Origin: Escherichia phage ph0011
Sequence record: OP557969.1
Reading direction: 5' to 3' (one strand)
Length of the DNA: 64,000 bases
How positions within the stretch are numbered: position 1 is the stretch's first letter; each line of letters opens with the position of its first letter. The position numbers and the translations under genes were made by a program. Below, piece after piece: positions 3,017-42,965 of the stretch. The notes beneath the pieces were generated by a model. That model was not told where the DNA came from, made no database searches, and saw only the letters and a program-made list of their open reading frames with translations.

Positions 3017-3031
3017 GATATGGGCTTTTTT
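3002..3031 (+). terminator. candidate weak intrinsic terminator
   Basis: AAGCC...GGCTT stem around stop codon followed by TTTTTT. Confidence 0.35.
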
Positions 3032-3033
3032 GT

Positions 3034-3062
3034 TTGACTCAAGTACAAATGAATGGTACAAT
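3034..3062 (+). promoter_or_regulatory. sigma70-like early promoter
   Basis: TTGACT-N17-TACAAT about 25 nt upstream of the ATG at 3088. Confidence 0.45.
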
Positions 3063-3087
3063 GTGAAATCATTTTAAGGAGAACCCT

Positions 3088-6427: not shown

Positions 6428-6567
6428 AGACGTTTCGTATGATGTATTCAAACGTACAATAAAACAATACTATATAACTTTTTATAATTGATATTTTTTA
6501 AAAAATACACAATCACAACGTGCTCCTTTTATTGGAATTTACCTTATTAATTATAGTTGAGGGGAAG

Positions 6568-6945
6568 ATGGAAATGAAATATAAAGATTTTCATATAGGG
6601 ACATGGATGTACACTGGTGAGTTTATTACGTGCTGTAATTTATACAAGCGTGATTTAAACTACTCAAGGGAGAAGGTTATAAAGTTCGCAGATTCACAAT
6701 TTTATTTTATGGAGTTAAGTACTGGAATTCGTGTTAAATCAACCGTTATGCTGGATTATACAGTTCTGGATGAGGCACAATTATTTCAGGAGTCATTAGT
6801 ATTTGATAAGAAGTACAACTGTACATTAGAAGAGATAGTTGAAATCCAGCGTAGGATCAAATTTATTCACAAGGATTGTATCGATAAATGGTGTAAAACT
6901 GGTGAAACTAATTTTAGTAATTATTTCAATCTAGGGGAAGAGTGA
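6568..6945 (+). CDS. FQ-family paralog (short form)
   Basis: ATG at 6568 after GAGGGGAAG; core DEAQLFQESLVFDKKYNCTLEE. Confidence 0.7.
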   Translation: MEMKYKDFHIGTWMYTGEFITCCNLYKRDLNYSREKVIKFADSQFYFMELSTGIRVKSTVMLDYTVLDEAQLFQESLVFDKKYNCTLEEIVEIQRRIKFIHKDCIDKWCKTGETNFSNYFNLGEE

Positions 6946-7301
6946 TGGAATTTGATTTTGTAATATCAGTACATTCTTTCAAGAATAGTTTTCAGTACTT
7001 TTGTAATTTAAACAAAGGTGATTTAATGCACAGTGCAAATGAGTATATTCATTACACTGCTGGTAAATTTACATTTATTGATTACGATTCATTACAGTAT
7101 CCACATCAGGATATGCCGGACTTTACATTAATGGATGAGGCCGAACTATTCCAAGCTGCATTAGTATTCGATAAGAAGTACTTGTGTACACTAGAAGAAG
7201 TAATTGCCATACAAAATGAAATAAAAGAGTATGCTGCTTTGAATAAATCCAATGTAAGTATTAATCAAGAATACAAATTCAATATAGGAATTACAGAATG
7301 A
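6942..7301 (+). CDS. FQ-family paralog (short form)
   Basis: ATGA overlap; core DEAELFQAALVFDKKYLCTLEE. Confidence 0.7.
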   Translation: MMEFDFVISVHSFKNSFQYFCNLNKGDLMHSANEYIHYTAGKFTFIDYDSLQYPHQDMPDFTLMDEAELFQAALVFDKKYLCTLEEVIAIQNEIKEYAALNKSNVSINQEYKFNIGITE

Positions 7302-7663
7302 CATTTGATTATTCGATATACGTTTGCAAGTCCAGAACGGGGTGGGATTTGTGCTGTAATCTTGTCAAGGGTGACTCGGAACATGAGTTGAGTTTATATA
7401 TTCAGTACTCGGATTTGTGTTTTAATTTTATTGATGTATTGTATGATGACTTCGACTATAACTCTGAAAGTATTACAGATTATACAGTACTGGATGATGC
7501 TGAACTATTTCAAGCTTCTTTGGTGTTTGACAAGAATAAGTACTCATGTACAATAGAAGATATGATTTTTATACAAAATGAAATGAAGAGATATGTCAAA
7601 GAAAACACCTTTGATACATCTACACCAACAACAAGTAATTATTATTTCAATACAGGTGAGTAA
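7298..7663 (+). CDS. FQ-family paralog (short form)
   Basis: ATGA overlap; core DDAELFQASLVFDKNKYSCTIED. Confidence 0.7.
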   Translation: MTFDYSIYVCKSRTGWDLCCNLVKGDSEHELSLYIQYSDLCFNFIDVLYDDFDYNSESITDYTVLDDAELFQASLVFDKNKYSCTIEDMIFIQNEMKRYVKENTFDTSTPTTSNYYFNTGE

Positions 7664-7664
7664 T

Positions 7665-8006
7665 ATGGAATATGATTTTTCTATTTATATGCCTATAATT
7701 AGTTCACAAGATGTGTATTGTAATCTTAATAAAGGTGATTACGAACACAAAATGGATCAGTACATTAAATTTAATGGTGCGTACTTTAGCTTCATTGATT
7801 ATCAGGCCAAAGGATCAGTTGTAGAAAATATGAAAGACTATACAACAGTACATGGTGAGGCTGAAATATTTCAAGAGTCATTAATATTCGACAAGAAGTA
7901 CTTGTGTACTCTAGAGGAAGTAATTGAACTCCAACAGAAGATGAAAGAATATAGAAGAATCTACACAGAGACTGGTTCCAAAGATAGGTATCGTTTTAAG
8001 CTATGA
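7665..8006 (+). CDS. FQ-family paralog (short form)
   Basis: ATG at 7665 directly after upstream TAA; core GEAEIFQESLIFDKKYLCTLEE. Confidence 0.7.
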   Translation: MEYDFSIYMPIISSQDVYCNLNKGDYEHKMDQYIKFNGAYFSFIDYQAKGSVVENMKDYTTVHGEAEIFQESLIFDKKYLCTLEEVIELQQKMKEYRRIYTETGSKDRYRFKL

Positions 8007-8188
8007 ATAAAAAAGAACAAATGGAATCATTCATGAATACAATACTTCGACGATTCGTAATTGATATTAGACATAACAACATTACCAGGAATGACATGTG
8101 CTTCGGTACATATAATATTAGTGAATTGTATATAGCTAATATTCACATGGTGTACCGAGATTATATCCAGACACTACACGGGAGTTGA
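8003..8188 (+). CDS. small hypothetical protein
   Basis: ATGA overlap; 61 aa. Confidence 0.45.
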   Translation: MNKKEQMESFMNTILRRFVIDIRHNNITRNDMCFGTYNISELYIANIHMVYRDYIQTLHGS

Positions 8189-8189
8189 T

Positions 8190-8660
8190 ATGAGTTTTGA
8201 AAGAGCATTAGAAATTGCTAAGTTAATTGATGTATGTAAAAAAGAAATAGTGCTCAACAGACTCAATGGGTATCTATTCAAGGAAGGTAAATCTTATTGC
8301 CGAATGATATACGATGACAGTAGTGAATATATTCACATGTATGAAGAAAATCTTGATGAATCTGAAACAACACTCACTGGGTGTGATGTTAATCTGGAAG
8401 ATAATTACATGTACTTCTGTCGTGATGCTGATATTTTAATACAAGAAACATCATATCAAACTGGGAATCCAGAGGTATATCTTCCATATTCAGTACTGGA
8501 TAATGACTGGGGAAGTGAAGAGTTCTACTTCCAGCAGAATACTATCTACGATGAAGATGTACTTGACAAGCTTGTCATTCTGTGGTACTTTAAGAACACT
8601 GATACTCCTAACTTCTATATAGATTTGGATCTACTAAGAGTTATTAATGAGGATATATGA
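8190..8660 (+). CDS. FQ-family paralog (long form)
   Basis: ATG after GGGAG; N-terminal MSFERALEIAK; core PYSVLDNDWGSEEFYFQQNTIYD...WYFK. Confidence 0.7.
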   Translation: MSFERALEIAKLIDVCKKEIVLNRLNGYLFKEGKSYCRMIYDDSSEYIHMYEENLDESETTLTGCDVNLEDNYMYFCRDADILIQETSYQTGNPEVYLPYSVLDNDWGSEEFYFQQNTIYDEDVLDKLVILWYFKNTDTPNFYIDLDLLRVINEDI

Positions 8661-9097
8661 GTTTAGTAAGTGCACTTGAACTGGCACACAAAATACACAA
8701 CTTCCATGATAAAATAAAAAGTGGGTTTTATGGTGATAACGTAAGTGAATTTGGTAATGAGTATTATCTATCAAGTTCAAATACATACGCTGATGATATT
8801 TTACTTATGGGTCATGATAAAGACAATACTATACAGTACTCTTCATGTAGTCAATATGCTAGTTTTATGGTATATATTCCAGGAACTAAGATTACTTTTG
8901 ACACATCAAATACACCTGTTGACTTCGGGGTACTTGATGGTCCATGGGGTACTGAAGAGTATTACTTCCAACAGAGTCTTATTTTTAGCCAAGAGATGCT
9001 TGATACCTTGGTTGTGTTGTGGTACTTTAAAGAATTGAATTTTGAACCATTCTTTCTTGACTGGGGAGCATGTGAGTATTTAAGTTCAGGAGAATAA
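8657..9097 (+). CDS. FQ-family paralog (long form)
   Basis: ATGA overlap; N-terminal MSLVSALELAHK; core GPWGTEEYYFQQSLIFS...WYFK. Confidence 0.7.
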   Translation: MSLVSALELAHKIHNFHDKIKSGFYGDNVSEFGNEYYLSSSNTYADDILLMGHDKDNTIQYSSCSQYASFMVYIPGTKITFDTSNTPVDFGVLDGPWGTEEYYFQQSLIFSQEMLDTLVVLWYFKELNFEPFFLDWGACEYLSSGE

Positions 9098-9099
9098 TA

Positions 9100-9567
9100 A
9101 TGTCATTGCGAAGTGCATTGAAAGAAGCAAAGAAGATCCATAATTACATGATTATGGTACAAGAAGGTTCCGTGCCTGGTGTATATAAAACATCTGATAC
9201 TGAATTTTTCGTAAAAGATCGAGATGATTATGATGAGTCAGAGATATGTGCAGAAACGTTAGTACTGCACATTGATACGGATGATACTGATGACTGTGAA
9301 TATCAGATGCACAATCAATACCTTAGTTATTATAGGGATGAAGATATTATAATTTACACTCCTGATTACGATGATGATAACATAATCATTCCGTATTCAG
9401 TTCTGGAAGGTCCATGGGATAGTGAAGAATATTATTTCCAGCAAAGTACTGTGTATAATGAAGATGTTTTAGATGTTATTGTAATTATGTGGTACTTTAA
9501 AAGTATTGATTCTGACAGTTTCTATTTCGATTATGAATACGTAGAGAATACTGTAGGGGGAAGATAA
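9100..9567 (+). CDS. FQ-family paralog (long form)
   Basis: ATG after AGGAG; N-terminal MSLRSALKEAKK; core GPWDSEEYYFQQSTVYN...WYFK. Confidence 0.7.
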   Translation: MSLRSALKEAKKIHNYMIMVQEGSVPGVYKTSDTEFFVKDRDDYDESEICAETLVLHIDTDDTDDCEYQMHNQYLSYYRDEDIIIYTPDYDDDNIIIPYSVLEGPWDSEEYYFQQSTVYNEDVLDVIVIMWYFKSIDSDSFYFDYEYVENTVGGR

Positions 9568-10010
9568 TGTCATTACAAAGTGCTCTTGAAAAAGCAAAAG
9601 AACTTCATGCATATATTGAAGATATTAAGGCTGGGAAGTTCGAAGAAATATACAAAGCCGAGAATGGTAACTACTACAAGGATAGTGATTTTGCTACAAC
9701 TACAGTTATTCTTGGGTTGAATTCCAAAAGTCCAGTAGACTTTTCTCAATACAATCCAGATGCAGAATTTATTAGTTATGCTTATGGTGGCGAAATCCGT
9801 TTTTATAATCGCAGCAGACCTTTAAAATTGAACTTTGAAGTACTGAAAGGTCCGTGGGATAGTGAAGAGTACTACTTCCAGAATAGAACTTTGTATGATG
9901 ATGAAGTTCTAGATACTTTAGTTATTATGTGGTACTTTAAAAGTATTGATAGTACAAGATTTTATTTGGATTATGAATATGTACGTGAAGTTTATAAGGG
10001 TAAACGATGA
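9567..10010 (+). CDS. FQ-family paralog (long form)
   Basis: TAATG overlap; N-terminal MSLQSALEKAKE; core GPWDSEEYYFQNRTLYD...WYFK. Confidence 0.7.
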   Translation: MSLQSALEKAKELHAYIEDIKAGKFEEIYKAENGNYYKDSDFATTTVILGLNSKSPVDFSQYNPDAEFISYAYGGEIRFYNRSRPLKLNFEVLKGPWDSEEYYFQNRTLYDDEVLDTLVIMWYFKSIDSTRFYLDYEYVREVYKGKR

Positions 10011-10321
10011 AATTCTTATACAATATTCAGTACATTCCGGGTACAATTAGTTTAATGTATTTCTTCGACCATGATAATTTCCAACATCTTGCAGTTAGGA
10101 GATGTAATGAATCTTTAATGATCGAATATCTTCACGATTGTGATTATCTTCCTGACTTACTTGAATGTGATTACAGAGATGAGCATGAATCATTTCTGTT
10201 TCAGGAATCACTTGTATGGGACAAGAGAATAAATTTTTATGTTTTACTTGAGATACAAAAACAAGTAAAGTACTACTGGGATTACTTAATCACCCAAGAC
10301 TATATAGAGATTGAAATATAA
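10007..10321 (+). CDS. FQ-family paralog (short form)
   Basis: ATGA overlap; core HESFLFQESLVWDKR. Confidence 0.65.
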   Translation: MKFLYNIQYIPGTISLMYFFDHDNFQHLAVRRCNESLMIEYLHDCDYLPDLLECDYRDEHESFLFQESLVWDKRINFYVLLEIQKQVKYYWDYLITQDYIEIEI

Positions 10322-10764
10322 TGTACGAAAGTGATCTTAAGCACGCTGAAGAATTAGTTAATATAGTAAAGTTCTTTCAAAATAATGTAAAGTACTTAGA
10401 CTATAAAGGGGCTTATATTAGTACTATAAGTGTTGGTACAGATATTCTAGGATTAGGCAATGAATATAAGTACGAGTCCCATGATTATGACTTGGAATTC
10501 AAGTACTTCGTATGGGATTCTGGAACTTTCTATTCTATAGATGAAGATGGCAAATATTTTGAATTCACAGAAGAAGAAGTTCTATTCTTAAATTCAGAAG
10601 ATGCTTACTTTCAATATAGTACTATATACCCAAACGCGGCGTTAAGAGCTTTAGTAGTTTTTAATGCATTTCTGAAAGAGAACTTTAACAATTCTATATT
10701 CATTGATTTAGATTATGTATATGAACTAAATCAGGTGATATATATGGAGTCCAGAAAAGAATGA
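10321..10764 (+). CDS. FQ-family paralog
   Basis: TAATG overlap; core SEDAYFQYSTIYP. Confidence 0.65.
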   Translation: MYESDLKHAEELVNIVKFFQNNVKYLDYKGAYISTISVGTDILGLGNEYKYESHDYDLEFKYFVWDSGTFYSIDEDGKYFEFTEEEVLFLNSEDAYFQYSTIYPNAALRALVVFNAFLKENFNNSIFIDLDYVYELNQVIYMESRKE

Positions 10765-11216
10765 GTTATGAAAGTGCACTAAAAAAGGCTAATGATATTC
10801 TACGCGTTGTTCAGTTCTTAAAGGACTATCCTGTTTATGTAGATGATGAACGCAGAGAAGTTTCTAATGGCACGAAGATTACAATTGATTCTTTATTTGA
10901 CACTAGCAGCAACAACTGTAGTACTATTGAATTAGCATACGATTATATTTCATTGAACAGAAAATATGATGAAGTTACGATAGAGCGTCATGAGGATGAA
11001 GAATCTTTTAAAATTTCTGATATTTTATCCCTGAGTACTGAAGAAGGGTACTTCCAGGGAAGTACTCTTTATAATGAAGAAACACTTGACAATCTATGTA
11101 CATTTAGTGTACTATATCAGAAGTCAGTACTGGATATATTTTATCTAGACACTGAAAAACTTGATAGGTTAGTTGATTTCGTTACTATAGAAGAGGCATC
11201 CTTTGAGAAAAATTAA
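10761..11216 (+). CDS. FQ-family paralog
   Basis: ATGA overlap; N-terminal MSYESALKKAND; core TEEGYFQGSTLYN. Confidence 0.65.
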   Translation: MSYESALKKANDILRVVQFLKDYPVYVDDERREVSNGTKITIDSLFDTSSNNCSTIELAYDYISLNRKYDEVTIERHEDEESFKISDILSLSTEEGYFQGSTLYNEETLDNLCTFSVLYQKSVLDIFYLDTEKLDRLVDFVTIEEASFEKN

Positions 11217-11739
11217 CATTAATGATTATGATGCATTACAAGATTTATCAAAAAAGATTCGCACTATCGTACCAGTACTGAAGAAATGCAGTACTGGATT
11301 AATCGATCCTAGTACAGTTATTAGTGAGAAGTACAATTTTCATAAACTGTTACAAGGGAATGGTGCATTCCAGAAGTGTGAGATACGTGAGACACACGTA
11401 ATTGATACATCATTGTTTTCTATTGGTGCACCTGTGTCGAATAATACTATTTTCCTAGACAACGCTGGAAATATTCAACAATTAACATTTAAGAAAAGGA
11501 AAAAGAACAATAACATTGGTGTGTATGCGATGAAGTGGGGTCAACCTGATTTGAAGCGTGAAATTCACATCCCTAAGTACAATTACAATGCATTTGACGA
11601 ACAGTGTTTTCAACTATCGTGTACTGACCCTGACTATGCTATCATTCAGTTCTATATGGAATTGCAGATTGCATTTAACAGTAATTTGTATATTAACTTA
11701 TTGGCGATGAACATCGATGAAGTATTCAAAAACATTTAA
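11203..11739 (+). CDS. FQ-family paralog (divergent), probable TTG start
   Basis: No in-frame ATG near 5' end; TTG at 11203 after GAAGAGG; motif FDEQCFQLSCTDP. Confidence 0.5.
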   Translation: MRKININDYDALQDLSKKIRTIVPVLKKCSTGLIDPSTVISEKYNFHKLLQGNGAFQKCEIRETHVIDTSLFSIGAPVSNNTIFLDNAGNIQQLTFKKRKKNNNIGVYAMKWGQPDLKREIHIPKYNYNAFDEQCFQLSCTDPDYAIIQFYMELQIAFNSNLYINLLAMNIDEVFKNI

Positions 11740-11935
11740 TCGAATTGAATACATGAGAACTGTGAGTGCAGTGTGGGACATATGGTTCACTACTAAACCA
11801 AAAATGGATTACCATGACTTTAAGCTATTGTTCTTCGTTGGCTCTAACAAACAGGATGTTGCAATGAAGGGTTATATTCAGCACTTACAGGAACTAATCC
11901 AGAAGAGAATATATGAAAATAATAGACCAAGATGA
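11717..11935 (+). CDS. small hypothetical protein, family B
   Basis: ATG ORF; motif DFKLLFFVGSNKQ; overlaps upstream gene by 23 nt, start uncertain. Confidence 0.45.
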   Translation: MKYSKTFNRIEYMRTVSAVWDIWFTTKPKMDYHDFKLLFFVGSNKQDVAMKGYIQHLQELIQKRIYENNRPR

Positions 11936-12104
11936 TATTGCTAAACTATTCAATATATATTCTTCTAAAATGATGCAAATCGACTCATATAGTACTGAAT
12001 TCAAAGAATTAAAAGTACTGATGTATTTGGGTACACAACATCAGGAACAAGTTGTTAAAGAATATATTGATTCATTACAGAAGGATATACGTTATGTACA
12101 ATGA
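11913..12104 (+). CDS. small hypothetical protein, family B
   Basis: ATG ORF; motif LKVLMYLGTQHQEQVV. Confidence 0.5.
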   Translation: MKIIDQDDIAKLFNIYSSKMMQIDSYSTEFKELKVLMYLGTQHQEQVVKEYIDSLQKDIRYVQ

Positions 12105-12648
12105 GCTTGACTTAGCATTTGAACGTGTAAAAATCTTCATTGAAACTTATCTTATGCACAAAACTATATTGAAAACAAAAGGAATATGGTTCACTGATAA
12201 ATTTCTTACTATGGCTAAGAGAGATGGAATGGAACATCTTTACTGTACAGATAGTGCCAGAATTTCAGTACTGAATTATGATGAAAGTGTATCATCTGGT
12301 ACTAGTTTAATTTCGACATATAATGATAATATTACTAGTATTATGTATACTAAAAATTGTTCAAATGTTTCTGTATATAAAAACTGTGATAGTTCATTAT
12401 CGTACAATATCGATCAGTACTTTTATCCTAATACAGAAGAAAACATCTTTCAAAATAGTCTTATATTGGATGATACATCTAATAAATGTATATATCTTTA
12501 TAATAAATTAAAAGAGTACATTGATAACAGTTCAATTAGAACTAATACATTCAGTGTTTCTGTTTTAAATTATAATAAGGAAGATGTGTTTTATTATACA
12601 GAAATTGAAAGAATACATACAATGTATAAGGAACTACTATGTTATTAA
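12094..12648 (+). CDS. FQ-family paralog
   Basis: In-frame ATG at 12094 after GAAGGA; core TEENIFQNSLILD. Confidence 0.6.
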   Translation: MYNELDLAFERVKIFIETYLMHKTILKTKGIWFTDKFLTMAKRDGMEHLYCTDSARISVLNYDESVSSGTSLISTYNDNITSIMYTKNCSNVSVYKNCDSSLSYNIDQYFYPNTEENIFQNSLILDDTSNKCIYLYNKLKEYIDNSSIRTNTFSVSVLNYNKEDVFYYTEIERIHTMYKELLCY

Positions 12649-13241
12649 ATGCAAATAAATGTTGTAGTGCTGATGTTCATGTATATTTTAAGAAATTAGT
12701 CAATGATATCATCTATATGCAAGAAATCATTTATCACAAAAGAATGGACTTAGAAAAAGCATTAGCTCAGTTCTCTTTTAATCTAGATGGTGATATATCT
12801 TTAGATGGTGATGGGTTACGTATAACATTAGACAGCAATTCCAATAGAGTTTTCTTTTGGATAGATAATAAATTATGTTCCTCAATTTGTCGCACTTTTT
12901 ATAACCCTATTTCGGACTTGTATCAATTGGTTTATTCGAAAGGTGCGGTTGAAGCATCATATGGTGATAGTTTTGCACTAGGGAAGTCCATTCCATATAT
13001 GCAAACATTTGATATTGAATTAGTCAGTACTGATGAAGATGTAATGTTCACAAATGATCTAACGATGCAGCGTGAATCTGCAATGAGATATATAACAAAT
13101 TCAATGCATACCTTCTTTAAAATAGCAGAATTTGATAATGTATATATATCAAATGTAAATATTTTCACTGACTTGTGTCAGTTTTTGAGAAATATTTTTG
13201 ATTTTGATGAAAGATATTCTAAGTTTTATACTGAGGTTTAA
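12639..13241 (+). CDS. hypothetical protein (possibly a divergent FQ-family member)
   Basis: ATG ORF 200 aa; only a weak motif-like segment DEDVMFTNDL. Confidence 0.55.
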   Translation: MLLNANKCCSADVHVYFKKLVNDIIYMQEIIYHKRMDLEKALAQFSFNLDGDISLDGDGLRITLDSNSNRVFFWIDNKLCSSICRTFYNPISDLYQLVYSKGAVEASYGDSFALGKSIPYMQTFDIELVSTDEDVMFTNDLTMQRESAMRYITNSMHTFFKIAEFDNVYISNVNIFTDLCQFLRNIFDFDERYSKFYTEV

Positions 13242-13246
13242 ATCAA

Positions 13247-13606
13247 ATGAATACCATTAGTATTACGTACTACACAACTAAAAAATACGTTTGTTGTTTA
13301 CTTTCTTTGAAGACTAATGATGATATGTTCAATAATGTGGCATATACATTAGAATTGTCAGAAGATGGTTTTCAATGTCATGAAGCATACTCAAATACAC
13401 GTGAAGATACAATTGATACTACGCTCATGCAAGAGGATGAATTATTTCAAGAAAGTTTAGTATGGGATAAAAAGTACTATTGTGATTTTGATTTTCTATG
13501 TTTAATCCAGAAAGAAATGAAAAGGATCTTCGACAATTATCCAGTGAAGAGATTAAGTTCTGGACCAGAGCAGTACAGGAGGATGATATTCCGATATGAA
13601 GACTAG
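13247..13606 (+). CDS. FQ-family paralog (short form)
   Basis: ATG after GAGG; core QEDELFQESLVWDKKYYCD. Confidence 0.7.
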   Translation: MNTISITYYTTKKYVCCLLSLKTNDDMFNNVAYTLELSEDGFQCHEAYSNTREDTIDTTLMQEDELFQESLVWDKKYYCDFDFLCLIQKEMKRIFDNYPVKRLSSGPEQYRRMIFRYED

Positions 13607-13931
13607 ATTAGTAAAAGTAATGTATGCTACACATATTAAACTACTTCTTGTGAAATTTGATTATAATAAAAAACACAATGAGTTTTATACTTTAATTCGT
13701 AATGAAGAATCATTTTCATTGAGATGTAATAATATACCAATGAAAATAAACGATTACACCACATTAGATGAGGGAGAACTATTCCAAGAATCATTAGTTA
13801 TTGATAGTAATATAAAAATAGATATAGAAATTATTAAGCAGTACCAGACGTTATTAAACAAAATTATGAATTGTTATCCCTGTAGAATAGAAGGTAATAT
13901 GCAATTTAAATCGAAAATGTACGAGTTGTGA
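13596..13931 (+). CDS. FQ-family paralog (short form)
   Basis: ATG ORF; core DEGELFQESLVID. Confidence 0.65.
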   Translation: MKTRLVKVMYATHIKLLLVKFDYNKKHNEFYTLIRNEESFSLRCNNIPMKINDYTTLDEGELFQESLVIDSNIKIDIEIIKQYQTLLNKIMNCYPCRIEGNMQFKSKMYEL

Positions 13932-13938
13932 GGTTTTT

Positions 13939-14475
13939 ATGTTAGATAAAATAATCAATACTGGAACACCATACAACCATCTTAAGTTGGATACATTTGA
14001 GTCAGCATTAAGTACTGCCCAAGATATAATTGATATTATTAAGTACATTAAAGAAAATAAGATAAAATGTTTAAAAAAGATAAATCATTCAATGTACAAA
14101 GATGACGACATTCATGTATCAGTTCTAAAGCCAAAAGATAAAGTAAATGGGAGAGATTTTTATAATAATAGTGGACAGTATGAATGCGAATATGACCCAG
14201 AATTTCGTGGCGGGTTCATGTGCTACAGTAAAAATGACACATCACATATTGAGATACGTACAATAAACGGTGGTATAACTAGATTGGAGTTCATTGATAT
14301 AGTTTTAAATCAGGAAAATTACTTCCAACAAACATTAATTTATCCTTCTTATTATGTAGGAGTACTATTCATGTACAAGTACTTCTATGTGCACTTAAAT
14401 GAAGATTTCTATATAGACTTAGAAGATTACCAATTAGTATGGGAAGAAATGATAGAACTTCGCAATAACACTTGA
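13939..14475 (+). CDS. FQ-family paralog
   Basis: ATG after GAGG; core NQENYFQQTLIYP. Confidence 0.65.
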   Translation: MLDKIINTGTPYNHLKLDTFESALSTAQDIIDIIKYIKENKIKCLKKINHSMYKDDDIHVSVLKPKDKVNGRDFYNNSGQYECEYDPEFRGGFMCYSKNDTSHIEIRTINGGITRLEFIDIVLNQENYFQQTLIYPSYYVGVLFMYKYFYVHLNEDFYIDLEDYQLVWEEMIELRNNT

Positions 14476-14501
14476 CCCCCACCAAATCTTTGTGATATAA
14501 T
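14472..14501 (+). promoter_or_regulatory. sigma70-like early promoter with extended -10 (TGTGATATAAT)
   Basis: TTGACC-N18-TATAAT with TG two bases upstream of the -10; intergenic. Confidence 0.5.
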
Positions 14502-14534
14502 CTCTTTAAATTAATTGTAAAGGGTTATATCGCA

Positions 14535-18313: not shown

Positions 18314-18334
18314 AGACCCGTATGGGTCTTTTTG
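18313..18334 (+). terminator. rho-independent terminator
   Basis: AAGACCC-GTAT-GGGTCTT hairpin followed by a T-run, immediately after the stop at 18313. Confidence 0.6.
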
Positions 18335-18344
18335 TGTTTTAGGC

Positions 18345-18373
18345 TTTACATAAGCATTCAGGTGTGTTATACT
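18345..18373 (+). promoter_or_regulatory. candidate sigma70-like promoter
   Basis: TTTACA-N17-TATACT upstream of the ATG at 18401. Confidence 0.4.
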
Positions 18374-18400
18374 TGATTTTAAATAAAATTGGAGGAATAT

Positions 18401-27444: not shown

Positions 27445-27457
27445 TGAAAAAAATAAT

Positions 27458-27486
27458 GTGGACAAATTAAATCCCTGTGATATAAT
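27458..27486 (+). promoter_or_regulatory. sigma70-like early promoter with extended -10 (TGTGATATAAT)
   Basis: GTGGACA -35-like, about 16-17 nt spacer, TGaTATAAT; intergenic upstream of 27517. Confidence 0.5.
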
Positions 27487-27516
27487 GTTCGCATCTTTTT
27501 GATAACGGAGATATAG

Positions 27517-29159: not shown

Positions 29160-29189
29160 GACATACCATAAGTTTATGATATAATATAA

Positions 29190-29220
29190 GGTGACAGCAG
29201 AATATGTTGTCACCTTTTTT
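29190..29220 (+). terminator. rho-independent terminator
   Basis: GGTGACA-11 nt loop-TGTCACC hairpin followed by TTTTTT, 30 nt after the stop at 29159. Confidence 0.6.
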
Positions 29221-29762
29221 AATCCTGAAAGGTTCCTTTAAAGGAAACGTTTAAAACCTAATCCACTCGAAAATGTAGAGGGTAGATGAGTAGTCCTTTC
29301 AGTACGAACAGCAGATGAAACCCGTTAGATGATGGCATAGTTTGAACCACTCACGGCAATGCGGCTGTATAAAGAACTCCAATAGGATAAAGAGAGTTCC
29401 TCGATAGACATATAAGGATCGCACCTTACCAATTATCTAAGGGAGATTTCATGAGAAATATGCGGTCGGAATTATACAATATAGTTGCGTCCAAATTTTG
29501 TGAAATCAAATACAAGTACTGGTCATATGGTATTTGTATTATGTGTTGGGATGTTTAAGACCAACGACCGTTGCTACAAGAACCGCGATAGAGAGAAACC
29601 GAGCAACCCGCTTTCGTCTCGTATGAGAATTCGTGATATGAACTATGTGAAGACCACCAGCGTCAAATTTTTTTGTTCTTTCCCCTGCGGGGGGATGAAA
29701 TATGCTCAAACAAACCTCGTCAATATTAATTAAAAGAATTATTATTACTTGTAGAATTTGAC
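29221..29762 (+). other. ORF-free island of about 540 bp; candidate structured non-coding RNA or regulatory region
   Basis: No convincing ORF on either strand in an otherwise densely coding genome; appears locally G+C-richer by eye with several short inverted repeats (e.g. CCCCTGCGGGG at about 29682-29692). Confidence 0.3.
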
Positions 29763-30402: not shown

Positions 30403-30927
30403 ATGTCGAAGAAGGATACTTCGAAGAAAAAGCAATCAGTACATTTCAGTACTGGAAAAGATAACTGGACAACTCCAAAGGATTTCTTTGAAGAGTTGGA
30501 TGAGTTATGGGGATTCACACTTGATGCTGCTTGTGTTGATGAGACGGCATTATGTGAAAATTATTTTACACCAAATGACGATTCTCTATCACAGGATTGG
30601 GGAAAGAATATAGTTTGGTTAAACCCGCCATATAGTGATTTGAAAACATGGTTATCTAAAGCAGTAGATGCGTATAATAAAGGAGCAACAGTCGTAATTC
30701 TAGTTCCATCACGAACTGATACAATAGCCTTCCATGAATATGCTGCAAAAGTTTGTGATTGTATTTGTTTCATTAAAGGAAGATTACGATTTGGTATCCC
30801 AGAAGAACCAGAGAAGAAGACAGATTCAGCACCATTTCCTTCATGTCTTATAGTTCTTGATAATTACTTAACTACTGCTAAAATAAATTATCTTAAATCT
30901 ATTGGGTTGGTAATGAAGAAACTATGA
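30403..30927 (+). CDS. dam: DNA N6-adenine methyltransferase, phage Dam family
   Basis: ATG after AAGGA; motifs WTTPKDFFEEL and catalytic NPPY (VWLNPPYS) typical of phage N6-adenine methyltransferases. Confidence 0.88.
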   Translation: MSKKDTSKKKQSVHFSTGKDNWTTPKDFFEELDELWGFTLDAACVDETALCENYFTPNDDSLSQDWGKNIVWLNPPYSDLKTWLSKAVDAYNKGATVVILVPSRTDTIAFHEYAAKVCDCICFIKGRLRFGIPEEPEKKTDSAPFPSCLIVLDNYLTTAKINYLKSIGLVMKKL

Positions 30928-32671: not shown

Positions 32672-32941
32672 ATGAATTACAAAAATATACAATTCACTTA
32701 TATGGAATTATTTAAATTACACCATAAAAACAGAAGTTCTAACACAATTATTAAAAATGCGTTTACCCATAAACTATGGACAAATTACCTAGAAGAATTG
32801 CGTGAATATTTTGTTGATACTGAAATTTTCATTGGTGGTAAAAAACGAAAAATACTTAGAGTCGATAGTTTTGGTGGTCGATTAGTTCTTTCATATAAAC
32901 TTAATAACGATCTATGTTCTGTGAATTTGGTAGATTTATGA
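32672..32941 (+). CDS. small hypothetical protein, family C (N-terminal NIQFTY motif)
   Basis: ATG after AAGGA; MNYKNIQFTY; C-terminal beta-rich segment shared with next four genes. Confidence 0.6.
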   Translation: MNYKNIQFTYMELFKLHHKNRSSNTIIKNAFTHKLWTNYLEELREYFVDTEIFIGGKKRKILRVDSFGGRLVLSYKLNNDLCSVNLVDL

Positions 32942-33198
32942 ATTATAAAGATTTCCAATTTACATTCAAATATATTCGTAGTATAGCAGATAAAAATAAT
33001 AGTGTGTTTTTAGAAGACACATGTTCTGAAATGATTAATACTGTTCGTGATAGGATTAAAGAAAAATTCAGTACTGTTATTATTAACGATGAACATGCAG
33101 AATTTTCAGATATAATAATTCGACGAGATGGTAAAGTTGAGGTTCAGTACTACACTGATTTTGGATTTACCAGTGTTACGTTGGAGATATTCCCTTGA
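32938..33198 (+). CDS. small hypothetical protein, family C
   Basis: ATG at 32938 (ATGA overlap); MNYKDFQFTF. Confidence 0.55.
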   Translation: MNYKDFQFTFKYIRSIADKNNSVFLEDTCSEMINTVRDRIKEKFSTVIINDEHAEFSDIIIRRDGKVEVQYYTDFGFTSVTLEIFP

Positions 33199-33506
33199 GA
33201 TTAAATTTAAATGATATTCAATTTACATATAAAAATATATACGATTTGTATGATATGTATCTTTTTAGTGGGAAGATTGGTAACCATACTGAATCAAAAG
33301 AATCACCATTTATCCAAAATTACTTTGATTACTTAGATGCAGTTGGTGAATATATAAAAAAGAATTACAGTACTTACACTGATGGAGATGATATGTTTGA
33401 ATATTCAGGTATAAAATCTTATCAAGGAATTATCCATGTTGAGTTTCTTGAAAAAACTGATAGGGAGTTTATAGAGATCAAAGTGATGAAGTTAACGGAC
33501 CTGTAA
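33195..33506 (+). CDS. small hypothetical protein, family C, probable TTG start
   Basis: TTG after GGAG; LNDIQFTY motif. Confidence 0.5.
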   Translation: MRLNLNDIQFTYKNIYDLYDMYLFSGKIGNHTESKESPFIQNYFDYLDAVGEYIKKNYSTYTDGDDMFEYSGIKSYQGIIHVEFLEKTDREFIEIKVMKLTDL

Positions 33507-33516
33507 GGATTGACAT

Positions 33517-33807
33517 ATGATTCTTAATGATATACAATTCACATATAGAGTTTTATACATGGAGTACTCTCATACTGATCCTAAAGACTATCACTATTAT
33601 GAAACCTTTCGAACGATATGGATTGAATTTTTAGATGAATTAAAAGCGTATTACGGTAGTGTTCGTATTGTTCGTGATGGTAGAATTTACACTTGTAAAG
33701 ATGTTGTCAGTCATAGTGGTAAGCTACGATTAGAATTATATACAGAAGGACATGGTTGGATTGGTGTAAATTTACTGGATTTAGATAATGAAACACAACT
33801 TAAATGA
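33517..33807 (+). CDS. small hypothetical protein, family C
   Basis: ATG after AAGGA; MILNDIQFTY. Confidence 0.6.
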   Translation: MILNDIQFTYRVLYMEYSHTDPKDYHYYETFRTIWIEFLDELKAYYGSVRIVRDGRIYTCKDVVSHSGKLRLELYTEGHGWIGVNLLDLDNETQLK

Positions 33808-34066
33808 CATACAAGTGTTCTATAGCTTCGTATATGAATCTTATGCATCAGAAGGTTACTATGAAAGTGTGTATTATTTTTTATGGCAACAATACCGTAC
33901 TATAGTACGAGATTTATATATAGGAAAATATATAACATACTGTGATAGTAGAATGATGTGCACAGATGTTCTTAGTTATCATGGTAGGTTGGTATTCCAG
34001 TTCGAAGACAGTGAAGGTAGTATGTCTTTAAATGTAAGAGATTTAAAAGGAGTGCATTTTGAATAA
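33788..34066 (+). CDS. small hypothetical protein, family C
   Basis: ATG ORF; NLNDIQVFY motif. Confidence 0.55.
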   Translation: MKHNLNDIQVFYSFVYESYASEGYYESVYYFLWQQYRTIVRDLYIGKYITYCDSRMMCTDVLSYHGRLVFQFEDSEGSMSLNVRDLKGVHFE

Positions 34067-34259
34067 GTGTCCATATTGTAACAGTACTCAATTAGCTCGT
34101 TTCCGTTTAGATTCAGACTGGGCCACTGGTGCTGGTGATTTCTTTCCTATCAATGATGATGCAGAATATACAGAAGAACAGCACAAAGATTTTGATAAAT
34201 CATGGCGACCTGACATTGAGTGCATTTATTGTCTTAATTGTGAGCGTATACATGACTAA
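34059..34259 (+). CDS. small zinc-ribbon protein (CxxC...CxxC), probable TTG start
   Basis: TTG after AAAGGAG; CPYC ... CIYCLNC cysteine pairs. Confidence 0.45.
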   Translation: MNKCPYCNSTQLARFRLDSDWATGAGDFFPINDDAEYTEEQHKDFDKSWRPDIECIYCLNCERIHD

Positions 34260-34515
34260 AGCTGAACTGATCGTACAAACACTGCGTTTATTGAGGGATT
34301 TAGATATCCCACGCATGGATGTGAAACTTGAAGATATCTACATTGAATCTCTTAGTGAAGATTACACCGATACCGTAATGATGCTGAATGACGTGCTTTA
34401 TCGTATAGATAGCATCAGTCGTCTTGGAAGTACTTTAAAAGTGAATATGGAAAGAGTTGATAAACTTTATGTACATATATATAGTCTACCTATTTCAATA
34501 TTAAACTATAGATGA
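34252..34515 (+). CDS. small hypothetical protein
   Basis: In-frame ATG at 34252; 87 aa. Confidence 0.4.
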   Translation: MTKAELIVQTLRLLRDLDIPRMDVKLEDIYIESLSEDYTDTVMMLNDVLYRIDSISRLGSTLKVNMERVDKLYVHIYSLPISILNYR

Positions 34516-34802
34516 ATATTATATTGATACAAAAAACATATGCGTTATTGATGAAAGAATATACTAATACTTATGATGAAAAGTGCAGTGCAAATCATAA
34601 TATGTATAAATTCATTACCCAAGAGTACAGGGATTATATATATGCTGCGTTAGTGGGTAGATATTTCAGTACTAAAAAACGTAAAGAACTCAAAGTTGTA
34701 GATATTACTTTTTTCTACAACGGGCATATAACAATTCATGGTGTTGAACATAATTCACAAATATATCGTAACTATTCATTCAATGAGGTAACAATTATAT
34801 GA
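34512..34802 (+). CDS. small hypothetical protein
   Basis: ATGA overlap; 96 aa. Confidence 0.5.
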   Translation: MNIILIQKTYALLMKEYTNTYDEKCSANHNMYKFITQEYRDYIYAALVGRYFSTKKRKELKVVDITFFYNGHITIHGVEHNSQIYRNYSFNEVTII

Positions 34803-34981
34803 GAGTAGTATTTTTTATCTGGAGTCTTTTCTCACTAGCAGTACTGACAGTTTCAGGTGCTTATTCTTTTTTAACAATGAACACATGGTATGTTAATTTA
34901 CTATTCCCAATTGTTGGTGTCGGTTTAGGATTTACTTTACATAGTGTATGTAAGGATTACAATGACAAATACAACAAATGA
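34799..34981 (+). CDS. small predicted membrane protein
   Basis: ATGA overlap; two hydrophobic segments in 60 aa. Confidence 0.45.
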   Translation: MRVVFFIWSLFSLAVLTVSGAYSFLTMNTWYVNLLFPIVGVGLGFTLHSVCKDYNDKYNK

Positions 34982-35240
34982 AGTTCTTATTGCTGAAACA
35001 ATGAATATGATTTATTTTATTACTACGGCACAGGATTTGTCTTATCCAGTGAAATCGTTACTTAGGTCAATGTATATTGATATTGTAAAAGAATATTATA
35101 AATCTAAACACAGAAGTATTATTAGTGTTTATCGTGATTATGAAAGGATTCGTATTTTATTCTGGAACAAGAACCGAGTTCGTGAGGAATGTGATCTAGT
35201 AGATTTTAAATTAGAGAATCTTTATTGTTACAAAATTTAA
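34962..35240 (+). CDS. small hypothetical protein
   Basis: In-frame ATG at 34962 after AAGGA. Confidence 0.5.
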   Translation: MTNTTNEVLIAETMNMIYFITTAQDLSYPVKSLLRSMYIDIVKEYYKSKHRSIISVYRDYERIRILFWNKNRVREECDLVDFKLENLYCYKI

Positions 35241-38265: not shown

Positions 38266-38844
38266 ATGAATGTATTAGAATTAAGTACTAAGCTTATTAG
38301 TATGCGTAATGAGTGGTACGATTGGTTTTATAAAGGCACTGATATGGATTTTTCAAAATATCCATTTATGGAATCAGGATGTGATGCAAACTACCGCTGG
38401 TTGAGCAAAAGTGATTCTGGTTTATTCATTCGAATTGATGATAGTGGTCAAGGAATTTTAAAAGATTTAATTCGAGTTGAAGAACTCGTCCATGACAATT
38501 GGTGTGATAATGATCCATACCTTGGAAATATGATTTATGTAAGTGAAAATGATTGCATATTCGTTATCCAGCGTCATGGTGATTCTATGTTTTATGTAGC
38601 AGACAACAGTACACCTGACGGTGCGGCAGCCAGTGAACTTATGCCTAAGATTGGTATATTGGAATTTGGATTACCTGAGCACTTTCAGATTAGTACTTTA
38701 TACGATATTCCACCACTTGAGTTCTTTGAAGAATTTAAATTATACTACAATGATCTTCAAAAATTGAGTTCTGAACATCGAATTGAAATAATAGTCAAGT
38801 ACATGGATGGGACAAAATTAACCGATACGGGGATAGAATTTTGA
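38266..38844 (+). CDS. FQ-family paralog (outlier copy)
   Basis: ATG after GAGGA; core LPEHFQISTLYD. Confidence 0.65.
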   Translation: MNVLELSTKLISMRNEWYDWFYKGTDMDFSKYPFMESGCDANYRWLSKSDSGLFIRIDDSGQGILKDLIRVEELVHDNWCDNDPYLGNMIYVSENDCIFVIQRHGDSMFYVADNSTPDGAAASELMPKIGILEFGLPEHFQISTLYDIPPLEFFEEFKLYYNDLQKLSSEHRIEIIVKYMDGTKLTDTGIEF

Positions 38845-39531: not shown

Positions 39532-39795
39532 ATGAATATCCAAGATAGATTACAATTGTTGTGCACACTTGAACAAGCTGCTTATGAACTTGTTAATAAA
39601 ATCTCTGAAGAACTTCCCAAAGGAACTAGAGTTCGTGTTCGTGAAATGGATTATGTAACGGGTGAAATTGAAGAAAAAGTTTTAACAGTGGTTAAAGTAA
39701 CATACTATGAGTCAGAGCTATCAATTCAATGTAAGTCAGATAATGGTTACATTTCCTACTATGGCACTGATATAGAGATGGAGGTAATCAAATGA
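39532..39795 (+). CDS. small hypothetical protein
   Basis: In-frame ATG at 39532 after GGTGGA. Confidence 0.5.
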   Translation: MNIQDRLQLLCTLEQAAYELVNKISEELPKGTRVRVREMDYVTGEIEEKVLTVVKVTYYESELSIQCKSDNGYISYYGTDIEMEVIK

Positions 39796-40934
39796 CCCTT
39801 TTACAAATATATGAAGATTTGATGCACTTATGTAATACCCGTGAGGCTTTCTTTTATGTAGATCATAAAAGTCCTGCTGGTGGCACATATCGTGTATTCA
39901 GTTATCGACTAGCATCATATACTGATTTCATGCAACCGAATGCATTGGAAACCCGTGGTTCTATGTGGGAAATCGATGACGATGGCAACATGATACGTTG
40001 TGCATCACGTTGTATGAAAAAGTTCTTTAATGCTTACGAAAATCCTGCTACGATGTTCCCTGCTGATACCAAATGTGATGACATTGCAGTAGTGATGCCT
40101 AAGTTGGATGGTTCAATTATCAGTTCTTACCGTGATAATGATGGTATTATTCGTTGTAAATCACATACCTCATTGTATTCTGACCATGCAATTAACAGTA
40201 CTCGACTAATTAACGAGAACCAGAATTTGTATCAGTACATTGATGAAGCTGAACGTTTGGGTTACACGGTTAACATGGAGTACACAAGCCCAGAGTACCG
40301 AATCGTATTGCCATATCAGGTAGAACAACTATTTGTTCTAAACGTCCGTCATCGTGTAAGTGGTGAATTGTTGTGTGGTAAAGCATTACGCGAAAAGTTT
40401 CCTTGTCTTTCACAGTACAGCACCAATATGACAGGTAAAGATATTCATCACACGTTTCCGGTAAGAAATACATTTCGTGAAAGTGTTGAAGAAGTTCATA
40501 AAATGCTTGATATTGAGGGTTTTGTTTGTATTCTAAAAGATGGGACAATGTGTAAAATAAAGACGGATTGGTATAGTTCATTACATCTAACAAAAGACAG
40601 TATCATTATTGATTCACATTTGTTCGAAGCTGTGTTAAATGGTTCAAGTGACGACTTGAAACAATTATTCAGTACTGACGAATATGCTATGCAAAAGATA
40701 TTGAGAATGGAACAATTGGTATTTTCGTGCTATAATTCATTACAAGATGAGGTAGAAAACTTCGTCAATACACACAAGCACTTGGGACGAAAGGAATTCG
40801 CAATGAAGGTTCAGGAGTGTTTGACTAATGAACTAAATCGTCAGGGCTTGGCCTTTGCAATGTATAACAATAAGTATGTTGATTATAAAGAAACTCTTAT
40901 CAAATACATGAAAGTAGTACTAAAGGACTTTTAG
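39792..40934 (+). CDS. rnlA: RNA ligase 1 (T4 Rnl1/gp63-like)
   Basis: ATGA overlap after GAGG; 380 aa; N-terminal segment FFYVDHKSPAGGTYRVFSYRLASYTDFMQPNALETRGSMWEID closely parallels T4 Rnl1 as I recall it, including the adenylylation-site lysine context. Confidence 0.9.
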   Translation: MTLLQIYEDLMHLCNTREAFFYVDHKSPAGGTYRVFSYRLASYTDFMQPNALETRGSMWEIDDDGNMIRCASRCMKKFFNAYENPATMFPADTKCDDIAVVMPKLDGSIISSYRDNDGIIRCKSHTSLYSDHAINSTRLINENQNLYQYIDEAERLGYTVNMEYTSPEYRIVLPYQVEQLFVLNVRHRVSGELLCGKALREKFPCLSQYSTNMTGKDIHHTFPVRNTFRESVEEVHKMLDIEGFVCILKDGTMCKIKTDWYSSLHLTKDSIIIDSHLFEAVLNGSSDDLKQLFSTDEYAMQKILRMEQLVFSCYNSLQDEVENFVNTHKHLGRKEFAMKVQECLTNELNRQGLAFAMYNNKYVDYKETLIKYMKVVLKDF

Positions 40935-42032: not shown

Positions 42033-42965
42033 ATGCCGACTATCACACTAACAGTTGGTTTACCTGGATGTGGTAAAACAACATGGGCAGTACAAGAGAT
42101 TAAAAAAGCCAAATCCAAGACTATCAATATCAACCGTGATGATATTCGTGAATCGATGGCTGGGTCACATGATGCTTACAAATTCAATGATGCTAATGAG
42201 AAGTACGTAACTAATTTACAGTTCAGTGCAGCAAAATTAGCAGCAGAGAATGGTTGGAATATTATTGTATCCGACACAAACCTTAAACCACATTTCCGTG
42301 AACAATGGAAAATGTGGGCTAAAGATAATGGTTATGATTATAAAGAAAAGAACTTCTATGATGATTTTGTACCAAAGGAAGACCGTGGTGCAGATGTTCA
42401 TGAATTCTTTAAGATTAAAGAGTTTGTAAAACTTTGTAAGAAATATAACCTCCAGCGTGAGCGTTCAGTACAAGATAATATCATTGACACAATGGCAGAT
42501 ACGTACTATTATAGTAAGGCATTGCATATTGGTTACTATGGTAATTCTCGTGAAGAAGCGATTATCGTTGATATCGATGGAACTCTTGCTCATAAATGGA
42601 ACCGCAATCCATTTGATGAAAGTACAGTTCTCCAAGATACACCAGACGAAGAAGTTATTTTGTCTGTTATCGCCGAAGCAGTTTTTCATAAACGCAAGAT
42701 TATTGTCATGAGTGGTCGTACTGAAGGGTGTCGTGCTGACACAGAACAGTGGTTGAAGAATTGGGGTGTTCCCTACGATGCATTGTTTATGCGAGGCATT
42801 GATGATAAACGTCCCGATGATGTTGTTAAATTCGACCTGTACATGAAAAATGTGGTTGATCATTACGATGTTAAAAAAGTATATGATGACAGAGCACAAG
42901 TCGTATTCATGTGGCGTAAACTACTTGGATTGAAAGTGATGCAAGTTGCGGAAGGAAATTTTTAG
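42033..42965 (+). CDS. pseT: polynucleotide 5'-kinase/3'-phosphatase (T4 Pnk-like)
   Basis: ATG after AAGGAG; P-loop GLPGCGKTT in kinase domain; phosphatase DxDGT motif (VDIDGTL); collinear with T4 PseT as I recall it. Confidence 0.92.
   Translation: MPTITLTVGLPGCGKTTWAVQEIKKAKSKTININRDDIRESMAGSHDAYKFNDANEKYVTNLQFSAAKLAAENGWNIIVSDTNLKPHFREQWKMWAKDNGYDYKEKNFYDDFVPKEDRGADVHEFFKIKEFVKLCKKYNLQRERSVQDNIIDTMADTYYYSKALHIGYYGNSREEAIIVDIDGTLAHKWNRNPFDESTVLQDTPDEEVILSVIAEAVFHKRKIIVMSGRTEGCRADTEQWLKNWGVPYDALFMRGIDDKRPDDVVKFDLYMKNVVDHYDVKKVYDDRAQVVFMWRKLLGLKVMQVAEGNF

Follow-up and report, generated by a model that had tools for sequence, protein, structure and literature searches.

The four-gene cluster and its family

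The stretch of DNA considered here (the window) comprises 64,000 nt of the genome of Escherichia phage ph0011 (sequence record OP557969.1), and the subject of the analysis is a cluster of four related tandem genes of this phage, designated copies 1-4, together with the larger family of small proteins to which their products belong (Table 1). The first-pass annotation of the window had listed four open reading frames (ORFs), beginning at 8190, 8657, 9100 and 9567, and all of them are present on the plus strand and share an MS.xSAL..A start, EE.YFQ and WYFK. It had also described the genes as butt-joined by ATGA or TAATG; such overlaps exist at three junctions only (ATGA at 8657, TAATG at 9567 and ATGA at 10007), whereas copies 2 and 3 are separated by a 2-nt spacer at 9097/9100 (TAA-TA-ATG), and the ATG of copy 1 at 8190 is located 1 base after the stop codon of the upstream gene. 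Shine-Dalgarno sequences occur upstream of all four starts (GGGAG, GAGGA, AGGAG and GGGGGAAG for copies 1-4, respectively); those of copies 2-4 are located within the final codons of the preceding copy, hence the Gly/Glu-rich tails of the proteins of the cluster.

Table 1. Coordinates of the four copies, their conserved DNA blocks and the surrounding features in the window (aa, amino acids; pI, isoelectric point; HMM, hidden Markov model).
Feature	Position	Strand	Remarks
Copy 1	8190-8660	+	156 aa, pI 4.1, net charge -21; orthologue of fEgEco12 g116
Copy 2	8657-9097	+	146 aa, net charge -15; overlaps copy 1 by ATGA
Copy 3	9100-9567	+	155 aa, net charge -26; copy used for the AlphaFold2 model
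Copy 4	9567-10010	+	147 aa, net charge -6; TAATG upstream, ATGA into the next gene
145-nt C-terminal block, copy 1	8492-8636	+	EEFYFQ 8517-8540, WYFK 8583-8594; direct-repeat family D1, 67% to the reference (copy 3)
145-nt C-terminal block, copy 2	8929-9073	+	EEYYFQ 8954-8977, WYFK 9020-9031; D1, 61%
145-nt C-terminal block, copy 3	9399-9543	+	EEYYFQ 9424-9447, WYFK 9490-9501; D1 reference; one side of the apparent L012 recombination
145-nt C-terminal block, copy 4	9839-9983	+	EEYYFQ 9864-9887, WYFK 9930-9941; D1, 81% to copy 3; other side of the apparent L012 recombination
Paralogue array	1330-25606	+	31 members by HMM; long (146-198 aa) and short (104-141 aa) forms
Next gene, short-form member	10007-10321	+	shares ATGA with the end of copy 4
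Variable slot upstream of copy 1	7665-8188	+	short-form member 7665-8006 and 61-aa ORF 8003-8188
Gap-free block with the four copies	6520-14475	+	20 genes, most with overlapping start/stop; no gap of 25 nt or more
Nested alternative-frame ORF inside copy 2	8745-9038	+	97 aa; probably spurious
Putative sigma-70-type promoter, extended -10	14472-14501	+	TTGACC-18-TATAAT preceded by TG; in the gap closing the block

The four copies are mutual best BLASTP hits within the family (30-48% identity), and their alignment contains 22 invariant positions, comprising M1, S2, A6, L7 and A10 and the pattern V-L..W..EE.YFQ...LD..V..WYFK...F..D near the end. In all four, the motif EE-x-[YHF]-F-Q-x-[ST] is found about 70% along the protein (EEFYFQQN, EEYYFQQS, EEYYFQQS and EEYYFQNR in copies 1-4, from residues 110, 100, 109 and 100, respectively), with the Ser missing in two; the C-terminal motif proposed earlier is therefore valid as far as EE[FY]YFQ, whereas the residues that follow (QN, QS, QS and NR) vary and are not a constant QS. 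In the four-copy alignment, pair identity drops from 0.45 (columns 1-20) to 0.13 (columns 21-112) and rises again to 0.51 (columns 113-165), and indels are confined to the middle; in the joint alignment with orthologues described below, a column-label permutation shows the contrast between ends and middle to be significant (p<=1e-4), and this contrast was matched or exceeded by 5 of 156 circular shifts. Conserved ends enclosing a variable middle, as the first-pass annotation had them, were thus clearly seen, and variability spread evenly along the proteins was not. The acidic character ascribed to the middle applies to copies 1 and 3 only (D+E/K+R of 16/5 and 23/4); the other two have 8/3 and 9/8.

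An iterated HMM search seeded with the four copies converged at 31 members, all on the plus strand, with 0 matches in shuffled ORFs. The copies themselves match the HMM built from them with E of 1e-38 to 1e-46 and the iterated family HMM with E of 7e-38 to 1e-45, and seven more borderline ORFs, the furthest of them at 38266-38844, contain FQxS at the expected position. With hhalign, the profiles of the long and short forms align around the FQ motif (probability 82%, E=1e-5). Acidic proteins (pI 4.1-5.3) make up most of the family, which also includes two basic ones. When 1.84 billion representative proteins were searched with the profile, only 141 clusters reached E<=1e-3; all of these proteins have 39-202 aa, and no fusion to a further domain occurs among them. 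Among 153 homologues, which are otherwise about 20% identical, the most conserved residues (copy 3 numbering) are F113 (153/153) and Q114 (151/153), followed by S116 (138/153), E109 (131/153) and E110 (126/153).

Copies 1-4 match PHROG 9317 over their full length (E=3e-52, 7e-53, 5e-61 and 2e-50, respectively; profile positions 1 to 154-156 of 160) and PHROG 12674 more weakly, and the latter is the best match of the neighbouring genes at 10321 and 10761. Sequence comparison indicates that the four copies are one subfamily (PHROG 9317) of a larger lineage-restricted family. The entries for these two PHROGs give no function, structure or family description, and they record neither the FQ motif nor the relation of long to short forms. 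Searches with the family against Pfam, NCBIfam, PADLOC and PDB-sequence profiles yielded nothing above noise, the lone PADLOC-DB hit among the 31 members (E=0.036) being noise as well; the combination of a very acidic surface with a known mimic fold that characterises DNA-mimic anti-restriction proteins (Ocr, ArdA, Arn) was not found in the family, and the literature search found no functional study of it, nor a definition or structure.

The family consensus E-E-x-Y-F-Q-x-S resembles the site of the potyvirus NIa/tobacco etch virus (TEV) protease, E-x-x-Y-x-Q/(S/G), and the EEGYFQG encoded by the neighbouring gene 10761-11216 matches this site exactly. The likeness is probably a coincidence; however, where these proteins carry TEV-cleavable tags, possible internal cleavage should be watched for.

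Predicted fold and selection

AlphaFold2 modelling of copy 3 with a 31-sequence alignment predicted one compact domain (predicted local distance difference test (pLDDT) 88.9, predicted template modelling (pTM) score 0.84). Counting from the N-terminus, the model contains a helix (residues 3-22), seven strands within residues 28-97, short helices 99-103 and 109-115 (EEYYFQQ), a helix 121-135 (LDVIVIMWYFK), a strand 141-144 and a helix 146-152; the middle sheet holds the family-conserved aromatic positions Y74 and Y77. The first-pass annotation had taken the middle for a hypervariable insert, perhaps an exposed loop, and the model contradicts this, as it presents the middle as a seven-stranded β-sheet within the fold; because residues 41-50 are the sole weakly modelled stretch (pLDDT 57), the variable middle appears to be an ordered sheet with variable loops rather than an insert. 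The short form encoded at 7298-7660 is predicted (pLDDT 85.6, pTM 0.82) to consist of five strands followed by the FQ helix, then a long helix and a final strand; it has no counterpart of the N-terminal and last helices of the long form and begins and ends with a strand. The predicted architecture of the long form is that of a domain with a shared N-terminal helix and a shared C-terminal helical part, in which the seven-stranded sheet is particular to each paralogue.

The structural relatives found were only uncharacterised proteins of phages 121Q, SP27, RaK2, GAP32, Serratia phage BF and Yersinia phage fHe-Yen9, with no characterised or PDB relative of the predicted fold among them; Polo-box-like sheet-plus-helix modules (PLK1, PLK2, PLK4, Cdc5, KKT3, ZYG-1) are among the nearest known systems for comparison. 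These results bear on the possibility that the family consists of small enzymes, with E-E...Q.S as the active site and the variable sheet setting substrate specificity. The near-invariance of the polar residues E109, E110, Q114 and S116 in a very divergent family is in line with it, but no similarity of fold or sequence to any enzyme was found, none of His, Cys, Asp, Lys or Arg is invariant among the 153 homologues, and a phage with over 30 paralogous enzymes of 105-200 aa would be an unusual case; an enzymatic function is quite improbable.

The selection analysis employed orthologues of the four genes and of four neighbours from eight other Asteriusviruses, leaving out CMSTMSU as a low-quality record, and the ratio of nonsynonymous to synonymous divergence (dN/dS) was estimated by the Nei-Gojobori method. 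Whole-gene dN/dS is 0.30 for copy 1, 0.24 for copy 2, 0.13 for copy 3 and 0.34 for copy 4; among the regions, the middle has the highest values (0.14-0.72, with 0.72 in copy 2), which never exceed 1. Orthologues of copy 1 are 84-87% identical. In a joint alignment of paralogues and orthologues, identity within orthologues in nine phages is 0.91 for the N-terminal part, 0.89 for the middle and 0.92 for the C-terminal part, and between paralogues the respective values are 0.41, 0.18 and 0.46. Since the middle is 0.89 identical within orthologues and 0.18 between paralogues, it is paralogue-specific and yet stably kept. The comparison points to an old divergence between the paralogues followed by purifying selection on each of them, and the preservation of each tested copy by selection suggests that the phage needs these proteins.

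The earlier proposal of a diversifying family, that is, of binders whose middle is under ongoing positive selection or targeted mutagenesis, is largely refuted by these data. It could draw on the low identity of the middle between paralogues (0.13-0.18), on the concentration of indels there and on the top regional dN/dS of this part, but within orthologues the middle is about as conserved as the ends, the pairwise and regional dN/dS estimates are all below 1, so that positive selection was rejected, and the middle is modelled as an ordered sheet, not a loop. A diversity-generating retroelement or a cassette mechanism was rejected too: no reverse transcriptase was noticed in the translations of the window ORFs, which were read by eye, and the window has no near-identical template/variable repeat pair, the best DNA repeat being the 145-nt block (61-81%), which is located in the conserved part. 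Active diversification is, on this evidence, hardly probable; a middle that is variable between paralogues does not imply ongoing hypervariation, and this attractive reading has to be corrected. Taken as a whole, the first-pass interpretation is borne out in part, as regards the conserved ends and the variable middle.

At each of the eight orthologous loci, the ORF nested inside copy 2 is interrupted by an early stop, and it is therefore probably not a gene; the stops also make it an improbable source of the low dS (0.05-0.10) observed in the copy 2 middle.

Copy-number variation and genome surroundings

The DNA of the window is 84-94% identical to that of the Asteriusvirus (121Q/PBECO4-like) jumbo coliphages such as TH47, Turkey3, fEgEco12, SP27, PBECO4 and 121Q. 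In the August 2025 collection of GenBank phages, none is more than about 89% identical over 1-25000 or about 88.5% over 39001-64000, and the record of phAPEC6 (MK817115) is 83.6% identical to the window; as that record is no closer and no GenBank phage exceeds about 89%, the window seems to represent a separate Asteriusvirus lineage. The protein of copy 3 is 100% identical to the database protein vBEcoMphAPEC6_0056, which conflicts with the similarity of only 83.6% to MK817115, so that label and record disagree. In the distant relatives A4, Turkey5 and JNE01, megablast matches cover 2-8% of the array query versus 31-56% of the query taken from the enzyme-rich neighbour region.

The four-gene region corresponds to 38.6-42.6 kb from the left end of the fEgEco12 genome, which has a direct terminal repeat of 20,993 bp (PMC13070987). 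The inspected annotated genomes share synteny over the four genes and label each of them, like every gene of the syntenic region, "hypothetical protein". In the phage of the window, the packed array is placed a short way in from the left end of the genome. The syntenic regions of fEgEco12 and Turkey5 contain 39 family members in 44 kb and 29 in 24.5 kb, respectively.

Judging from their sequences, the four copies arose via tandem duplication. The number of copies in the cluster varies from 3 to 5 across phages, with three in Turkey5; SP27, BF17 and phAPEC6 (five copies, gp438c-gp442c) have a fifth one immediately upstream of the copy-1 orthologue, which in SP27 is the coding sequence 169533-170024 (L010 3034-3525), encoding 163 aa and 58% identical to copy 3. 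The proteins P0006-P0013 (57-58% identical to copy 3), considered as fast-evolving orthologues, are actually this fifth paralogue of other phages. In the window, the place upstream of copy 1 is taken by the variable slot, and the DNA similarity drops out exactly over it, the arrangement being that of a cassette swap, in which the short form and the 61-aa ORF stand in place of the fifth long form.

A metagenomic contig (L012; ENA ERZ28642444 scaffold_10318) aligns to 8783-9543 and 9839-11120, the two alignments overlapping in the 145-nt block (L012 617-761), and its protein P0004 is a chimera of the N-terminus and middle of copy 3 with the C-terminus of copy 4. This is an apparent one-unit deletion by recombination inside the conserved block, with assembly collapse as the alternative. 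Another candidate chimera, P0014, was rejected as a read-through fusion from the low-quality CMSTMSU record. The 147-aa member at 10321-10764 is replaced by a 102-aa gene in the clade of BF17, CRJP21 and SD-6_S16 (BF17 L002 2452-2760; also L007 and L008), and copy 4 and the genes at 10007 and 10761 fall to about 69% identity with this clade, which suggests a recombination boundary within the array.

Variation in copy number is also what could be cited for the array as genome filler, i.e., for neutral tandem duplication filling an enlarged capsid along the lines of the ratchet proposed by Hua et al. (2017). Purifying selection on each tested copy (dN/dS 0.13-0.34) disfavours this explanation, as do the preservation of reading frames, Shine-Dalgarno sequences and start/stop overlaps across the compared phages and the retention of one predicted fold by paralogues at 20-40% identity; it is very improbable.

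A tandem array in phage 121Q, of the same genus as the window, was mentioned by Hua et al. (2017) (PMC5646251) in a single sentence, with no coordinates, definition of a family, structure, selection analysis or function, and the mention was repeated in a 2026 jumbo-phage review (PMC13282480); the phAPEC6 paper likewise mentions an array of related genes. The array of Hua et al. (>30 genes) could equally be the FQ-motif family or a family of about 70-aa proteins further upstream. In fEgEco12, 28 consecutive small genes (g057-g084; L001 2436-8625) start not more than 100 bp from the end of the 21-kb terminal repeat, and this run could be the ">30 gene array" in question.

Tight packing extends beyond the gap-free block, with 45 of 67 junctions overlapping across 1-30.9 kb. 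Two other tandem families of small proteins were observed in the window. One, unrelated to the FQ-motif family, comprises proteins of 63-94 aa with the motif LSEF[DN][VM]LFYLGT (196-408, 360-644, 11717-11935 and 11913-12104), and the other, at 32914-35240, comprises about six proteins of about 95 aa, most of them with an N-terminal LNDIQ[FV][TF]Y-type motif. Scans of the window for Rfam families and tRNAs gave no hits, which includes the 603 nt at 29160-29762, where there is no ORF of annotated size and a TGATATAAT-type promoter is followed by a strong hairpin (GGTGACAGC...GTTGTCACC and a T-run); this stretch might represent a regulatory region or encode a small RNA.

Further downstream, a T4-type RNA repair pair is encoded at 39792-40934 and 42033-42965, consisting of an Rnl1-like RNA ligase (Pfam E=2e-15, 5e-17) and a polynucleotide kinase-phosphatase (E=7e-43); the RNA ligase/polynucleotide kinase pair of T4 counters anticodon-nuclease defence. 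The window also encodes a phage ClpP (52302-52997, Pfam E=1.6e-41), a weak ClpP-like protein (58330-58935), a Sir2-family protein (60077-60829) whose gene overlaps that of a Nudix (Nudt16-like) protein (60826-61377), and a Dam-type adenine methyltransferase (30403-30927). The latter five genes, located downstream of the array, may plausibly serve host manipulation or anti-defence.

Expression and possible roles

Sigma-70-type promoter matches with extended -10 elements (TGnTATAAT), with or without terminator hairpins, are located in the few gaps at 3017-3087, 14476-14534, 18314-18388 and 27445-27516, and the gap closing the block of the four copies contains the candidate promoter listed in Table 1. 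The RpoD-like promoters of phage CBB, a relative, are concentrated among short hypothetical genes beside the terminal repeat, where the authors suspect early takeover genes (PMC5259590); RNA sequencing of phage PA5oct assigned early expression to the uncharacterised genes that lie between gp34 and gp105 and are described as located inside the long direct terminal repeat (PMC7318152). The early takeover genes of large lytic phages (the T4 early small ORFs, the T5 pre-early genes and those in the regions of PA5oct, shown to be early, and of CBB, proposed to be so) are likewise small, co-oriented and packed, lie close to a terminal repeat or genome end and have sigma-70-type promoters. Those regions hold mostly unrelated genes, whereas one family gives at least 31 members in the array of the window, for which we infer early expression.

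The explanation favoured by these data is the following. The genes of the array would be read early by the host RNA polymerase from sigma-70-type promoters, and their products would be cytoplasmic proteins that stay in the cell instead of entering the virion; the sheet surface of each paralogue would bind a different host (or phage) target, and the family would represent a stockpile of binders for host takeover or anti-defence, not a hypervariable cassette. The structural and evolutionary part of this explanation is held with high confidence. The binder role, in host takeover or anti-defence, is tentative, and the explanation taken as a whole (a tandem family, expressed early, absent from the virion and acting through target binding) has somewhat less than an even chance of being correct. 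The first-pass annotation had already spoken of a "binder or inhibitor" family, which is a reasonable guess and stays one, as the searches yielded no functional link.

The cytoplasmic location has to be weighed against packaging, in which the products would be internal or inner-body proteins, with the N-terminal helix as a capsid-targeting sequence cut by the prohead protease, as in T4 and phiKZ-like phages. The cleavage motif of the T4 prohead protease is L/I-x-E; L-K-E of copy 3 (residues 7-9) conforms to it, in contrast to A-L-E, found in the remaining three copies. The N-terminus is conserved, and phage 121Q shows an inner-body-like bubblegram pattern (PMC5646251). However, the N-terminal helix of copy 3 is modelled as a confident part of the domain (pLDDT 93-97), and the virion mass spectrometry of phAPEC6 (62 proteins, a single dataset; PMC7247149) includes none of the products of its array, gp404c-gp466c (MK817115), and nothing between gp347 and gp549. 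A capsid-targeting N-terminus was accordingly rejected, and packaging is exceedingly improbable.

The layout of a fixed part joined to a variable one would also suit adaptors, whose helical part with EE..FQ.S would dock a shared partner (the phage ClpP or the host RNA polymerase) and whose sheet would recruit different host proteins. The persistence of a short polar/aromatic motif in the 153 homologues and the presence in the window of ClpP and of a second, weak ClpP-like protein agree with this idea, but no link from the family to ClpP or another partner was found, the short forms keep the motif while having no N-terminal and last helices, so that the "docking part" is not constant, and the helical wheel suggests that the motif faces the protein core. 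An adaptor function is unlikely, and distinctly unlikely in its more specific form of an expandable set, in which the EE-x-x-F-Q-x-S part would dock on a shared machine (e.g., the phage ClpP) and the private sheet of each paralogue would deliver a different host protein, for instance a component of a defence system, to it. If this holds, the family would be for a bacterial virus what the ankyrin/F-box-like families are for poxviruses, built on a fold unseen in solved structures.

Several points weigh against the explanation by early, non-virion binders. The early timing is borrowed from distant relatives and from matches to the promoter consensus; promoter-like sites are not enriched over shuffles across the region (133 found versus 131 expected), and for this reason only the promoters in intergenic gaps were used. 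Absence from one virion mass spectrometry dataset is a weak negative for proteins of 15-20 kDa. At short range, the array is not clearly evolving faster than the enzyme-rich neighbour region (84-89% versus 86-88% DNA identity). Finally, the helical wheel places E109, Y112, F113 and S116 on one face and E110, Q114 and T117 next to it, with the variable positions 111 and 115 opposite; since the conserved polar residues share faces with the invariant Phe, the motif may be a signature of the fold rather than a binding or docking site.

The multigene families MGF360/505 of African swine fever virus and the ankyrin/PRANC families of poxviruses are terminal tandem paralogues with copy-number change by unequal recombination and with conserved and variable parts. 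They share these traits with the array of the window and have no sequence or fold relation to it, so that the parallel is an analogy only. Tandem accessory families in large viruses are already known; notable here are the size of the array and a predicted fold that matches nothing solved. The family is now defined by an HMM and a diagnostic motif, by its long and short forms with confident models, by a restricted distribution among RaK2-like jumbo phages and by a putative route of copy-number change; of the 350 kb of the phage genome, about 25 kb is taken up by this one uncharacterised protein family. If its members are host-takeover or anti-defence binders, the array would rank among the largest effector sets that a phage is known to draw from a single family, and it would offer a source of new inhibitors of E. 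coli proteins.

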